Assembly (NCBI RefSeq): GCF_035084215.1
Contig: NC_090364.1
Coordinates: 4,340,001 to 4,404,000 of the forward strand
Origin: Heptranchias perlo
Lineage: Eukaryota
Direction of reading: 5' to 3'
DNA length: 64,000 bases
Made by a program: the position numbers and the translations under genes
The notes under the pieces: generated by a model
What the model saw: the letters and a program-made list of their open reading frames with translations, nothing else
Told to the model about the DNA's origin: nothing
Database searches by the model: none
In this document: positions 28,329 through 36,145 of the stretch, one piece after another
Position numbering within the stretch: position 1 is the stretch's first letter
Layout of the letters: each line of letters begins with the position of its first letter

Positions 28329-30949
28329 ATGGCTTCCCAAGTGTGTCAGAACTATCACAAGGAGTGTGAGGATGGTGTCAACAAGCAGATCAATATGGAG
28401 CTCTATTCCTCCTATGTTTATCTTTCTATGGTGAGTTTTGTTTCTTTGACCCCTTCACATTGGAGACTCTAATGTGAAATTACAAAATTCTGTTTTCTCC
28501 AACTCATCTATTGCCTTTCCTCTTGTCTGCCCCCCCCCCCCCACAATTGATTGATGGATGGTGAGTGTCTTTTTAAAGCTGTAATATAATGTGATTTATT
28601 GTATGGTCATATCAAACTGTCTCTCTTCCTTGCAGTAGTTGCACCCCATTCTATATCTTAAATCTTAATTGTTCACTTTCCTGGTGTCTGAGCTTTTTAT
28701 TGAAGTTGTTTTGCAATGCACTCTGCATTCAATGCCTGGGATTCAGATTTCTTACCCTCTATTCTGCATCTCTCCACAGTCTTTCCCCACATTCTCCTTG
28801 CAATGAGGGGTCATAATCTTAAATTAGAGCTAGCCCATTTAGAAGGGAAGTGAGGAAGAACTTTTTCCCTCAAAGGCACTGGAAATCTAGAACTTTCTCC
28901 CTTGAAAGTCTGTGGATGTTGGGGATTAATTGGTGCTTTCAAGACTGAAATCTTTTGTTGGGTCAGGGTATTGAAGGATGGGTTGATGTACAGATCCATG
29001 TTCTAATTAAATCATTGAGTTGGCTCAAATGGCTGTATGTCCCACTCCTGTTTCTATGTTCCTAACCTTCACTTTTTAAGTACCAACTTGTCCCTGTCTG
29101 TCTTCTCTCTCTGCCTTTGCTCTATTGGTGGGAGGGCCTTCAGCCATTTTGGTCCTACTCAGTGTAACTGTTAACCCCTCTGCCTTCCTACCTCTGTCTG
29201 ACTCTCAAGGCACTCAAATGCTAACAGTTTCTAGTCATCTAACTTATTGCTTGGGATCTGTTTCTCCTCTGAAATGCCTTGATGTTTAGTGTTGAAGGTG
29301 CTAAGTTAATGCTGTTTGTGGTTGTTGTGGAAAGGGGTTTGCTTCAAATTTCAGTCATGCCCCTGAATTGGTTTGTACAAAATAGATCTGGTCAATAACC
29401 AATGATTGGAGATTGTGATACTGGTGAAAAGAAGGATCTTAGTCTTTATGTTTCTTCACTAATTTCTAGAGATATAATTCAATCTTGGGTGTGAAGATTA
29501 AAGTGAAGTATTGTGTTGATTATGTTCAAAGCTGAATTGGTAATTTTCCATTAGCCAGCTTCCTGATTGCTAGGAGTGAGATTATCTCACTCTACCAGGT
29601 TAGTGAAGCCAGTCAGCCTGTGCTAGTTTTCAGAACCATCTGCATACAAGCTCAGTGAGACTTGAGCCCTTGACAAAAAAAAAATTGTGGTTGGCTTTAT
29701 GTACAATTCCCCATGATGATCATTCTGATACCAACTACTTCTTTGATCTCTACACAGTCCTATTACTTTGACCAGGATGATGTTGCCCTGCGTCACTTTG
29801 CTGAGTTCTTCAAGGAGCAGTCACATGAGGAACGGGAGCACGCTGAGAAACTGCTGAAATTCCAGAATCAGCGTGGGGGCCGAGTCACCTTTGAGGACAT
29901 CAAGGTTTGATTTAATGACCGAGTGGCCTTCTGAATGGCTCCCCTTAAACTAACAATTTTAAATATTTCTAAAGCAATTTGTTCCAATGCACATAATTAC
30001 ATAGAATGTCCAGCACAGAAACAGGACATTTGGCCCAACTGGTCTATGCTGGTGTTTCTGCTCCACATGAGCTGCCTCCCACCTTCATCTTGCCCTATCA
30101 GCACATCCATCTATTACTGTCTCCCTCAGCACTTCCCCCTTAAAGACATCGATACTATTTGACTCCAGTGGTTGTGGTGGTGTAATTCAATATTCTTGGG
30201 ACAATTGGTTCATGGTGACATGGACCTCTGATTGCTTTTTCACCCCAATTTTCCTTCAATACTTGTGTATTTTGTTGAATCCATTAAGTGAACTGGCTGA
30301 GACCTGATTCCCTTTTCAGAAGCCAGAGCAGGATGAGTGGAGCAATGGTCTGGAGGCGATGCAGAGAGCTCTGCAGATGGAGAAGGATGTGAACCAGAGT
30401 CTGCTGGATCTCCACAAACTGTCCACTGAGAGGACAGACCCTCATGTAAGTTTTCAATGTGGGCCTTTGGGTAAGTTGGAGGTGGTGGAAATTTACTGTC
30501 CTTGAGCTGATTCAAAAGATCTTCATACTCATAGCTTTGTTGGTGTCATGCTCAAATTTTTTTGGGTGAGGGGAGACAGGAAAAGGAGATTGCCCTATTG
30601 TCTACATTAGAAGTAAATGTATCTGATCCCAGGATCTAAGCACTTAATAGAGCAAAGTTACTGTGCAATAGTGCATCAATCTGAAGTGCACCACTTGACT
30701 ATCCTCCAGTCCAAGAGGATTAAAATCCAAACTCTAGGGGAAGTTCCTTGCTATCTGCTGCTGGACATAACTATTCTCCATCTTTTCTTCCAGTTGTGTG
30801 ACTTCCTGGAGACCCACTACTTGGATGAACAAGTGAAGATGATCAAGAAGCTTGGAGATCACATCACCAACCTGAAGAGACTGGGAGCCCCTGAGAATGG
30901 CATGGGAGTGTACCTGTTTCACAAGCTCACCCTGGGGGAGAGTGATTAA
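28329..30949 (+). CDS. Ferritin H/M-type subunit G6 (class B, intact EEREH, C-terminus GESD)
   Basis: Exons 28329-28430, 29758-29904, 30320-30445, 30794-30949. AATAAA at 31086. Confidence 0.95.
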
Positions 30950-33799: not shown

Positions 33800-36145
33800 A
33801 TGGCCTCCCAAGTGTGTCAGAACTACCACAAGGAGTGTGAGGATGGTGTCAACAAGCAGATCAATATGGAGCTCTATTCCTCCTATGTTTACCTCTCCAT
33901 GGTGAGTCTTTTATTAATTGCCACTGCATTCTAAGTAGTTGGAATTTCTCCTGTTCAATAAACTGGCTCTAAAATGTGTTTCTCTTGATTTTTTTCCACC
34001 TCCCTTGGAAGACAAAGCTTTGGCCAGTGAGTACTTCCAGTGTGTAATACAGGATAATCTTGTTGAGTTAATGGACTGCTCCTTGCAGCAGCTGCACTCT
34101 ATTGAGGGGTTTAATATACTCCTGGCTGAGCTGCTGCCTGAGTTTGGAACAAATGCAGAAACCTGGTCAAGTGCTTGTCAGCATTTGTCCAATTTCAGTT
34201 TCAATGGGGTGACTGCAGTCAGTGAAATGTTGACAGGTCCTCACTAGTTTTCTTGCCTTGAGACTCCTAGTAATGAAGCTTTCTTCACTGTTCCTAGATC
34301 TCTATTACACTAAATGATTGTCCAGTGTAAAACTGCTGGGAAATGGAGTAATTGTCCCTTATTCCTCCACTAATTTTAGATTAGTATGGAGAGTAAATGG
34401 GGTACCACTGGCTCAGAAGTGAAGTTTGAGTTGAGATGAAATGTAATCCCTGACCTTAATTGCTACTTTTCTCTGATCCATTCATTATCCTATTGGGGAG
34501 GGGGAAGCTATTGACCATGTTGTGAAGTAAATTGAATTTTACTAGTAAACAAATGCTATCTAATTTCTAAAACTTTGAGCATGAATTGTATGTAGGTGAG
34601 ATCTAGGTCTGACATGATGCTGTTTTCAATATTCTCTCCACAGTCCTATTACTTTGACCGGGATGATGTTGCCCTCCGTCACTTCGCCAAGTTTTTGAAG
34701 GAGCAGTCGCATGAGAAACGGGAGCACACTGAGAAACTGATGAAATTCCAGAATCGACGTGGCGGCTGTATTGTCTTTGAGGATATCAAGGTTAGCTGTG
34801 GAGAAATATTAGTGACTGGACCACAGTTGAAAACCACATATGGCAGGACATTGGAGGAACAGACCAGGTGGAAATATAATTCCTTGAGTGCAATTTGCTA
34901 AAACCAATAGGGATAAGAGGTACAAAAGCCAAGAAGATTGTTGTGATGAGGGACTAGTTTGACCTTTCACCAAAGACCATTTCTCAAGGGGCAGAGTAGA
35001 TGAACATGAAGTTGAGAAAGTGGCAATATTGGGTTTATAGAGGATATTGTCCTTCTGTGGTTGTATTAATATAACATTGTCATACATCCTTTGCCTCAAG
35101 ATAAGTAGGGAAACATTGAAATGTCTGACTTGATATTAATGTATTAATCAATGAGAATAAAACATAACTCCTTTCATGTTGTAGGAGGTACAAGTACCAA
35201 TAATACTTGCATGTCTATGCTTACAGGTAGGGGAGTGGAATTAATTTAGATTCCTCTGTCAAATCTAGGACACATGATTGGCTGAATGGCCTGTTTTGTG
35301 CTGTTGTGTAACTAATCTTGGTGTGACTTCTTGTTTTGGTGATTTCTCATCTTTCTTTGTTCAGTTATCTGGAGTATAAACTAATCTCCATAACTCCAAT
35401 TCTTGCATGAAGTTAGCAATGAGATCACCAGATGTTCATGGAATTTTACATCTTCTGAACTTTCAGAAGCCCGAGCAGGATGAGTGGAGCAATGGTCTGG
35501 AGGTGATGCAGAGAGCTCTGCAGATGGAGAAGAATGTGAACCAGAGTCTGCTGGATCTGCACAAACTGTCCACTGAGAGGACAGACCCTCATGTAAGTTT
35601 CTAATGCCTTGTGGTATTAATATATATTTCATAACTTCAGGTTGTCTAAGCCAGTGCCATCCTTCAAACATCAGACCAAATTCTGTCCAATGGCTTTTCA
35701 CTTCTAAAGCCTGATGTACTGGATTGATTCAATTGGATGATTTTCAGTAATGAAATTCTCATTAGTAAATCTGTTTGTTCAACTTAATGGACACCTTACA
35801 ATTAGTACTGGTTTTGGTGAGGGGCAGATATCGAACAGAGATCTGGAAACAAAGCCCGGTGGGATGGTTTGGAGTAGGAGTTGACTTGTGTAATGGCAAC
35901 TTTCTGTCTCCTACTTCAATTCTAATGTGACTAGATCCTGAAAAGCAATGTGGTCAAATAGCTGCCTTAATGAAAATATCTCCCTTTCCCAGTTGTGTGA
36001 CTTCCTGGAGAGCCACTACTTGGATGAACAAGTGAAGATGATCAAGAAGCTTGGAGATCACATCACCAACCTGAAGAGACTGGGAGCCCCTGAGAATGGC
36101 ATGGGAGTGTACCTGTTTGACAAGCTCACCCTGGGGGAGGAGTGA
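33800..36145 (+). CDS. Ferritin H/M-type subunit G7 (class A, E62K variant HEKREH, C-terminus GEE)
   Basis: Exons 33800-33901, 34644-34790, 35467-35592, 35993-36145. AATAAA at 36280. Confidence 0.94.

Follow-up and report, generated by a model that had tools for sequence, protein, structure and literature searches.

The ferritin genes of this shark array include mosaics. We consider it probable that these arose by unequal crossover in which unlike copies were joined only where they are nearly identical, that is, in their four exons and most often in exon 4, with copies of the same class also crossing over at conserved blocks in their spacers. The mosaics are accompanied by a rule in which the tail of one gene predicts the promoter class of the gene that follows it. 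Under the explanation that we favor, this rule is best read as a footprint of shared descent and of the location of homology, and not as a signal from one tail to the next gene.

Contig-wide annotation of contig C43 places 81 loci in a tandem ferritin array of ~510 kb with two inverted arms, and further ferritin copies lie on C38, C725, and C1048. The window, here meaning the whole 64-kb stretch of DNA that was analyzed, contains 12 ferritin genes of four exons each, G1 to G3 on the minus strand and G4 to G12 on the plus strand, at the positions given in a preliminary description of this DNA (Table 1). Within it, the interval 30794-36145 extends from exon 4 of G6 through the stop codon of G7. 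Against the Pfam Ferritin family (PF00210; cut-off, 24.5 bits), exon 2 of G6 scores 44.9 bits and exon 3 scores 25.4 bits. Exon 4 of G6 alone has no Pfam match; all 40 homologs listed for it are shark proteins with PF00210, some of them in clusters of 127 to 180 members. Proteins of the array are 173 to 178 amino acids (aa) long and carry H/M-type ferroxidase ligands.

Table 1. Ferritin genes and associated features in the 64-kb window
Feature	Position	Strand	Description
G1 ferritin gene	560..2673	(-)	Class A promoter, ESD tail, 176 aa
G2 ferritin gene	6821..10833	(-)	Class A, ESD tail, Lys59
G3 pseudogene	13470..15319	(-)	ESD tail, promoter of its own type; interrupted by a stop at codon 7, and exons 2-4 carry small deletions
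G4	17129..20178	(+)	Own promoter type ('C'), EE tail; plus arm starts here
Youngest large window duplication	22554..38785	(+)	16.2 kb, 98.9% identity, partner 27.7 kb to the right
G5	23004..25278	(+)	Class B with Lys59 and Asp62; EE tail followed by the second EE 3'UTR subtype
G6	28329..30949	(+)	Class B, ESD tail; exons 28329-28430, 29758-29904, 30320-30445, 30794-30949
Exon 4 (G6)	30794..30949	(+)	Most homogenized exon, commonest switch site
ESD 3'UTR, spacer, class-A promoter and 5'UTR (G6 to G7)	30950..33799	(+)	
Near-invariant noncoding block	33100..33400	(+)	400-700 bp upstream of class-A ATG
G7	33800..36145	(+)	Class A, EE tail, Lys59; chimera switching at exon 4
EE 3'UTR, spacer, class-B promoter (G7 to G8)	36146..39339	(+)	
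G8	39340..41962	(+)	Class B, ESD tail; copies G6 at 99%
G9	44819..47569	(+)	Class A, EE tail; independent chimera, switch at exon 4 start
G10	50687..52963	(+)	Class B, EE tail; copy of G5
G11	56060..58671	(+)	Class B, ESD tail; copy of G6
G12	61534..63878	(+)	Class A, EE tail; copy of G7

The tails and promoters of the window genes are as the preliminary description had them, although it passes over the stop codon near the start of G3. ESD and EE tails differ by a 1-nt indel and by a different 3'UTR, the 5' ends of all genes but G3 and G4 belong to class A or class B, and all four pairings of class and tail are present (Table 1). The tail predicts the class of the next gene at 10 of 10 window junctions, 5 leading from ESD to A and 5 from EE to B (Fisher two-sided p = 0.008, or 0.029 without the two junctions contributed by the G5-G7/G10-G12 duplicate). 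These are not ten independent confirmations. G10 to G12 copy G5 to G7 at 98.9% and G8 copies G6, which bears out the original caveat that some junctions are recent duplicates, and the EE-B spacers likely share one ancestor, so that the junctions are not independent observations.

Both predictions made for the flanking sequence were confirmed: beyond G12, a class-B gene has its ATG at window position 67,053; to the left of position 1, class-A promoters lie at -1,246 and -3,030. Two junction types named beforehand as contradicting the rule, EE to A and ESD to B, account for none of the 72 junctions of the contig, which comprise 47 ESD-A, 14 third-tail-A, and 8 EE-B junctions and 3 to unclassified end genes. 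The third tail, of a 173-aa type, occurs in 14 loci, and the two tails of the window are therefore not the full set. Genome-wide, 43 exact matches to the EE tail and 43 to the B promoter were found, 40 of which form pairs (matched by hand) at a distance of 2.7 to 3.1 kb. The unpaired leftovers, once retrieved, were all EE-then-B, one of them across a LINE insertion, and every exact EE tail in the genome (43/43) precedes a class-B gene. The rule follows from any crossover within the gene and so does not by itself point to exon 4.

Switch points were counted from flank identities and triplets, and switch groups were read by hand. The stricter count kept 72 of the 81 loci; it dropped loci 13, 39, and 81 together with loci 26, 28, 42, 50, 54, and 68, candidates that proved to be local insertions, deletions, or truncations and not switches. 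On the contig, the groups fall in exon 4 (~9), the spacer (6 to 7), exon 2 (four), exon 1 (three), intron 1 (two), and exon 3 (one). Exons make up 10% of the unit yet hold 17 of 26 hand-counted groups, and introns 2 and 3 gave no discordant pairs (0/118 and 0/102). The binomial p value makes the exonic excess look stronger than it is, because the groups are hand-counted, threshold-dependent, and non-independent; across three threshold settings, counts range over 7 to 13 splits for exon 4, 6 to 9 for exon 2, and 4 to 7 for the spacer. A model with a single switch fits 16 of 18 triplets at 86 to 97% of informative sites and the other two poorly (78% and 71%). The existence of chimeric genes, as first proposed, is borne out by sharp single switches at exon 4: in 9 of 11 exon-4 triplets, the switch falls within ~15 nt of the exon or its interval spans the exon, the remaining two being locus 41 (just inside the 3'UTR) and locus 60 (poor fit). 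For G9, 149 of 154 informative sites fit and the switch lies between -4 and +20 of exon 4. One switch likewise accounts for 219 of 228 sites at locus 75, 171 of 180 at locus 30 (exon 2), and 123 of 128 at locus 27 (exon 3). Switches lie in or within ~35 nt of exons or at conserved spacer blocks; there are sharp, single ones at exons 2, 3, and 4, and flanks are discordant at exon 1 and within spacers.

Two parts of the preliminary description are not supported. Exon 4 is not the sole boundary of the repeat unit, considering that switches also occur in exons 1, 2, and 3 and in spacers. Nor do the 3'UTR, spacer, promoter, and exons 1 to 3 form an unbroken module: intron 3 follows the 5' class inside the window, as stated, but outside it 29 of 60 class-A genes carry a class-B intron 3. 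The youngest large duplication has both ends 450 to 555 bp upstream of class-B ATGs, outside exon 4, and all six ends of the three youngest duplications in the window lie in spacers. Copy number has changed in blocks of 5 to 26 kb with 98 to 99.6% identity. A two-gene cassette has spread to another chromosome-scale contig. Among EE-tailed genes on other contigs, 15 of 37 are chimeric, switching in exon 3 (6 genes) or exon 2 (9 genes) and none in exon 4, and loci 74 and 73, which lie in opposite orientations, have also given rise to chimeras there.

The distribution of homology accounts for the tail-to-promoter rule. The ESD-A spacer between G6 and G7 gave no BLAST match to the three EE-B spacers shown against it, and the near-invariant noncoding block within it, which is 98 to 99% identical in its core and is a switch site between ESD-A spacers, is absent from all 8 class-B spacers. 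The longest identical run has a median of 12 bp between EE and ESD spacers (360 pairs; maximum, 52), compared with 196 bp between EE spacers and 109 bp between ESD spacers. Between exons, it is 51 to 59 bp, and 109 bp for exon 4. Crossovers between classes are therefore likely only in exons. Over its first 1.3 to 1.8 kb, the EE-B spacer comes in a G5 type and a G4/G7 type that have diverged from each other; its second half is well conserved.

We infer the direction and order of the crossover events from one assembly. The history would begin with one ancestral block of EE tail, spacer, and class-B promoter that followed the gene at the head of either arm, G4 in one and the mirror of G4 in the other; G4 is, by this inference, the likely original carrier of the EE-B spacer. 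Exonic crossover between a G4-type gene and another gene would then have placed the block and its B gene behind new 5' halves, of A type, of B type, and, on other contigs, of two more types. Because pairing between the two spacer classes is impossible, the EE-B link would never have been broken. Exon 4 would be kept uniform by repeated exchange together with purifying selection, and this uniformity would in turn leave it the easiest site for crossover. None of the 81 loci shows the expected reciprocal product, in which an ESD tail would follow a G4-type 5' half.

That exon 4 is instead a special hotspot, with the true unit running from exon 4 to exon 4 as one module, seems quite improbable to us. 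The exon does head the exonic switch groups (~9 of 17; P of at least 9 = 0.024 if exon 4 is named beforehand), and its near-invariance, already noted in the original description, is clear at 4-fold sites, where copies differ by 3.0%, compared with 7.2, 10.9, and 15.9% in the other exons (Mann-Whitney p = 0.009). At the looser cut-off, more of its pairs (43%) are discordant than anywhere else, and inside the window no discordant pair occurs in exons 2 and 3. However, a chi-square test across the exons gives no significant excess (p = 0.09, or 0.29 when further events are added). With 39%, exon 2 comes close to the share of exon 4, and the spacer reaches 31%; at the stricter cut-off, the spacer (35 of 91 pairs) equals exon 4 (40 of 108). 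The spacer-ended duplications, the class-A genes with a B-type intron 3, and the other-contig chimeras also count against a hotspot; exon 4 as sole boundary was rejected on the same three grounds and on the switches in spacers and exons 1 to 3. We give equally little credence to selection as the keeper of the link, with the EE 3' region or spacer holding an enhancer, terminator, or insulator for the class-B promoter. The link persists in all cases examined, both tail types occur in proteins of other sharks (EE in P0037 and P0040), and the second half of the EE-B spacer is conserved, but the lack of homology already explains the rule, the first part of the spacer has diverged into two forms, and one copy tolerates the LINE insertion, of ~7 kb, between tail and promoter.

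The more serious competitor, although still a doubtful one, is non-reciprocal exchange initiated in exons, by long gene conversion or break-induced template switching, in place of reciprocal crossover. Long conversion tracts or template switching also produce the single-switch pattern. Five loci (29, 30, 36, 44, and 66) have two switches flanking a short stretch, combining a class-A promoter and intron 1 with class-B introns 2 and 3 and another tail; synonymous sites in exons are far more similar than the flanks; and simple tandem crossover would not give the chimeras between loci 74 and 73. Such exchange would nevertheless require multikilobase tracts, since the EE tail moves with a 3-kb spacer and the next gene, and the copy number of the array has in fact changed. 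Unequal crossover and conversion are not exclusive, and conversion probably also acts on the exons. Misjoining of near-identical exons during assembly is a very improbable source of the chimeras. Repeats dominate the array, its exons are 95 to 100% alike, and the evidence is an assembly and not raw long reads, but the identical stretches are only ~100 to 150 bp, and most chimeras differ by 3 to 10% from their nearest parents on both sides and so are not rejoined existing copies. In addition, the diverged A/EE-then-B arrangement recurs in the opposite arm (loci 69-68), and the assembled stretch of 604 kb carries no N.

The expansion of ferritin genes in sharks is published, and hybrid genes formed by unequal crossover are textbook material. 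Hemoglobin Lepore and the red/green opsin hybrids are examples arising by nonallelic homologous recombination (NAHR). Further cases are the CFH/CFHR1 hybrid (PMC1626556) and an FCGR3B/A hybrid gene with a breakpoint in intron 3 (PMC8183472). Like the shark mosaics, NAHR hybrids join the 5' part of one paralog to the 3' part and downstream neighborhood of another, with a change in copy number, and in the array we likewise find a single parent-to-parent switch located within a high-identity tract. In NAHR hybrids, however, the repeats are alike over introns too, whereas the introns and spacers of unlike classes in the shark array have diverged, which confines interclass exchange to exons of 100 to 150 bp; the array also holds dozens of hybrids in one assembly. 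Drosophila Sdic (PMC3449122), a chimeric duplicate from a duplication spanning two neighboring genes, similarly has a duplicated unit out of register with the gene, but it fuses two unrelated genes, whereas the partners in the shark array are paralogs and the protein barely changes.

For the Greenland and great white sharks, the ferritin section of a preprint (bioRxiv 10.1101/2024.09.09.611499) reports 155 'FTL' and 179 'FTH1' copies, ~80% of them in three clusters, the largest of which is expressed in ovary. The present array is likewise a large clustered expansion. That section covers copy numbers, synteny, and ovary expression and does not describe promoter or tail classes, chimeras, or inverted arms. 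Titles and abstract openings on shark ferritin, mostly outside the subscription literature, gave no account of the internal structure of such an array. With the present array, the published expansion gains an internal anatomy of promoter classes, three tails, inverted arms, and a spread two-gene cassette. The array is also a clean natural example of how tandem arrays evolve after introns and spacers diverge: exchange between unlike copies is funneled into short exons, so that the units of inheritance are intergenic blocks instead of genes, and neither gene trees nor 'ortholog' calls are reliable for the array copies.

The array genes share four exons and the ligand spacing with vertebrate ferritin H/M subunits. 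Unlike those subunits, the 12 window genes have no iron-responsive element at the Rfam gathering threshold, in a search of the window and two left-end stretches; the one match lies in a divergent ferritin at the left end of the locus (L040:3490-3525). An unlikely reading, taken as a whole, is that the array generates combinations of ferritin subunits for the shark egg without iron-responsive translational control. Through exchange in exon 4, each of the three 3'UTR/C-terminus types would come to be combined with any promoter; exchange in exon 2 would pair any promoter with a ferroxidase-competent helix or one impaired by the L-chain change of Glu62 to Lys or Asn. An H/L-like subunit mix would thus be rebuilt within one family and tuned by recombination, with exon 4 kept uniform as the preferred exchange site. 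Contigs from four of the five listed sequencing runs over 22,500-36,500 include some from which precisely the GT..AG introns of G5 and G7 are missing; no run is on record as RNA, and these contigs allow neither a ranking of the genes nor the identification of a tissue or of a chimeric transcript.

Ferroxidase residues were numbered against human Glu27, Tyr34, Glu62, His65, Glu107, and Gln141 (PMC6929972). Position 59 corresponds to human Glu62 by a constant offset of 3, seen in six other residues, and not by structure alignment. Glu61, a further human ligand, corresponds to E58. Among the 67 intact genes, E24, E58, E104, and Q138 are each present in 67, Tyr31 in 66, His62 in 63, and Glu59 in 55. 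If the copies with Lys or Asn at position 59 are ferroxidase-impaired and co-assemble with the others, an H/L-like division of labor would have arisen again within one family. As a further departure from vertebrate H/M subunits, 12 of the 67 intact copies alter a ferroxidase ligand in this way (E62K/N in human numbering), 8 with Lys and 4 with Asn.

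The window (G000:C43:4,340,001-4,404,000; genome 3.25 Gb) holds 12 ferritin genes, G1 to G12, each with four exons. In G6, exons 2 and 3 score as members of the Pfam Ferritin family, and the 40 homologs listed for exon 4 all come from sharks and carry PF00210. Surveying the window together with 100 kb leftward and 440 kb rightward, we found 84 ferritin loci in total: 3 divergent genes at the left end and 81 array loci between window positions -72 kb and +442 kb (G000:C43:4,268,000-4,782,000), with G1 to G12 as loci 14 to 25. The array has two inverted arms, centered near window +296 kb, whose corresponding blocks are 83 to 98% identical; loci 74/73 mirror G3/G4, and G3 and locus 74 have a stop at codon 7 in common.

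The preliminary description distinguished two C-terminal tails with their own 3'UTRs (ESD and EE) and two promoter classes (A: G1, 2, 7, 9, and 12; B: G5, 6, 8, 10, and 11), and held that a gene's tail predicts the class of the next gene. The tails, the classes, and all 10 window junctions are as described. The 5 + 5 split gives a P value of 0.008 if the junctions are taken as independent; G10 to G12 are a copy of G5 to G7 at 98.9%, and without those two junctions the P value is 0.029. The rule also predicted a class-B gene after G12 and class-A sequence left of position 1, and both predictions were borne out: a class-B ATG lies at 67,053, and two class-A promoters lie at -1,246 and -3,030. 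The 72 same-strand junctions on the contig comprise 47 ESD-to-A, 14 from a third tail class to A, 8 EE-to-B, and 3 to unclassified end genes, with no EE-to-A or ESD-to-B junction among them. Exact-pattern searches of the whole genome returned 43 EE tails and 43 B promoters (reversed controls, 0), of which 40 pairs, matched by hand, lie 2.7 to 3.1 kb apart; inspection of the 3 unpaired tails and 3 unpaired promoters showed EE followed by B in every case, one across a LINE insertion. These genome-wide matches are not independent either, because most derive from a single cassette; the copies resemble loci 73-72 at 97% and one another at ~98%. The rule is confirmed and extends beyond the window. 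At least 35 dispersed copies of the cassette (an EE-tailed gene, then a class-B gene; ~97% like loci 73-72) lie at G000:C38:9.6-16.6 Mb and on contigs C725 and C1048, occurring in either orientation and, in some cases, paired head to head at a distance of 7 kb.

To locate the switches, we compared 200- to 220-bp flanks on both sides of every exon and noncoding block and scored a pair of loci as discordant when the flanks were alike on one side and unlike on the other. Across all loci, discordant pairs made up 43% at exon 4, 39% at exon 2, 31% at the spacer, 14% at exon 1, 11% at intron 1, 3% at exon 3, 2% at intron 2, and 0% at intron 3. With tighter cutoffs and 9 truncated or locally disturbed loci left out (72 of 81 kept), the counts were 40/108 (exon 4), 45/139 (exon 2), 35/91 (spacer), 10/137 (exon 1), 5/126 (intron 1), 4/96 (exon 3), and none for introns 2 and 3. 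Grouped by hand into events, these are ~9 in exon 4, ~4 in exon 2, ~6 to 7 in the spacer, ~3 in exon 1, ~2 in intron 1, ~1 in exon 3, and 0 in introns 2 and 3. The higher count in exon 4 is only suggestive when set against the remaining exons (chi-square P = 0.09, or 0.29 with further events).

The preliminary description further proposed that the repeat unit breaks in exon 4, the module being 3'UTR, spacer, promoter, and exons 1 to 3. Part of this stands. Triplets show a sharp single switch at exon 4 for G7 (184/203 sites fit one switch), G9 (149/154; placed between -4 and +20 of the exon), G5 (145/169), and loci 63, 69, 74, 75, and 35, and exon 4 varies least among the exons (synonymous-site difference of 3.0% versus 7.2, 10.9, and 15.9%; P = 0.009 by site). 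Exon 4 as the boundary does not stand, and a repeat unit defined by exon 4 only is unlikely. Two exon-4 triplets (loci 41 and 60) do not fit; other triplets switch in or just past exon 2 (loci 30, 66, 41, 70, and 52) or at exon 3 (loci 27 and 60). All six ends of the window's three youngest duplications fall in spacers, 450 to 1,284 bp upstream of an ATG. Beyond the window, intron 3 does not follow promoter class as had been said: the type common to 8 of 8 class-B genes is also present in 29 of 60 class-A genes, which acquired it through exon 2 switches. Nor are two tail classes exhaustive; the third (14 loci; 173-amino-acid proteins with a C-terminal LN or LH, and a distinct 3'UTR) also precedes class A. 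Among the 37 EE-tailed genes on C38, C725, and C1048, 22 are G4-type throughout, 6 switch in exon 3 from the locus-74 type, 9 switch in exon 2 from the locus-77/75 type, and none switches in exon 4. These 15 chimeras probably trace back to two or three events that were then amplified. That chimeras in general reflect misassembly is highly improbable.

The spacers offer an explanation of the rule. The longest identical run between EE-B and ESD-A spacers has a median of 12 bp and a maximum of 52 (360 pairs), whereas the within-class medians are 196 bp (EE-B) and 109 bp (ESD-A); median runs between exons are 51 to 59 bp, and 109 bp for exon 4. Homologous exchange requires long tracts of near-identity. 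Because unlike spacers share almost nothing, crossover between the two junction types would in practice be possible only in an exon. An intragenic crossover anywhere would keep a tail joined to the next promoter, and the rule therefore says that interclass breaks are intragenic, leaving the exon unspecified; selection maintaining the EE-to-B link seems a poor candidate beside this. We consider it probable that unequal crossover in exons, with exchange at blocks of like spacers and help from conversion, shaped the array. From loci 17-19 and 73-71, the ancestral arm order would have been G4-type(EE), B(ESD), A(ESD), A, and so on; unequal crossovers in exons would then have placed an EE tail, with its spacer and the B gene that follows, after 5' halves of A, B, and other types, while exchange between like spacers would take place in conserved blocks, for example 33,100-33,400. 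Conversion likely contributes to exon uniformity; long conversion or template switching as the main process, which crossover does not exclude, is possible but doubtful.

Among class-A spacers that align at 33,100-33,400, the core of this block is 98 to 99% conserved; the block is absent from class-B spacers (0/8), and each of its 40 best matches in the genome falls on one of the three ferritin-bearing contigs. Such a noncoding block of ~300 bp, as conserved as the exons, lies upstream of many class-A genes and is likely an enhancer and exchange site. It is adjoined by a repeat with a tRNA-like end (about 32780-33090), which we take to resemble the shark SINE HE1.

Features of the ferritin array (window coordinates unless loci are given)
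Feature	Location	Detail
Array strand block	loci 4-16	minus
Array strand block	loci 17-58	plus
Array strand block	loci 59-73	minus
Array strand block	loci 74-84	plus
Third tail class	-55 to -3 kb; +391 to +432 kb	loci 7-12; 75-82
Young duplication	22,554-38,785	98.9%
Young duplication	27,089-32,521	99.0%
Young duplication	38,056-44,335	99.0%
Class-A upstream block, further copies	3583-3879; 12007-12301; 44113-44407; 60817-61117	
Variant exon 2	9828-9974	G2
Variant exon 2	34644-34790	G7
Variant exon 2		G5, G10, G12

Among 67 intact genes, position 59 is variant in 12 (Lys in 8, Asn in 4) and His62 is missing in 4. Given that the other ligands keep a constant offset, the two positions would correspond to human Glu62 and His65, and one study reports that the L-chain substitutions E62K and H65G jointly abolish ferroxidase activity (PMC6929972). 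The variants are accordingly predicted from sequence to have lost this activity, and the Lys/Asn-59 and His62-less copies to form an L-chain-like subset. Variant exon 2 occurs in both arms, mostly linked with one intron type; the Asn form is also found in one sawshark protein (P0001), and both EE and ESD tails occur among proteins of other sharks.

A clustered ferritin expansion with ovary expression is described for Greenland and great white sharks in a preprint (bioRxiv 10.1101/2024.09.09.611499), and hybrid genes from nonallelic recombination are well known (PMC1626556, PMC8183472, and PMC3449122). In a search covering part of the shark ferritin literature and the text of that preprint, no publication turned up that deals with promoter classes, tail classes, or chimeras in these arrays. 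Both the mechanism and the expansion were known before; the array is a new, well-resolved example.

The three divergent genes (L040-L039, stretches at window -96 kb to -79 kb), with exons 74 to 85% like the array's, are candidates for the array's source and for iron-regulated somatic copies. One carries an Rfam iron-responsive element (L040:3490-3525); Rfam gave no match to this element within the window. By eye, the 5'UTR of G6 (28282-28299) and other class-B leaders retain a remnant of one, with 5' arm and loop and no 3' arm. At -1246 (L031), G1 and the next complete gene are separated by an orphan that consists of a class-A promoter and exon 1 but lacks exons 2 to 4. A tandem run of ~5 near-identical 6.8-kb LINE copies (L006:305-6309 and neighbors, about 114-148 kb), 98 to 99.6% alike and encoding endonuclease and reverse transcriptase, interrupts the array. 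Further LINE copies lie near -31 kb, -15 kb, 187, 234-247, and 268 kb, and loci 42, 50, and 54 end in exon 2 just ahead of LINE copies.
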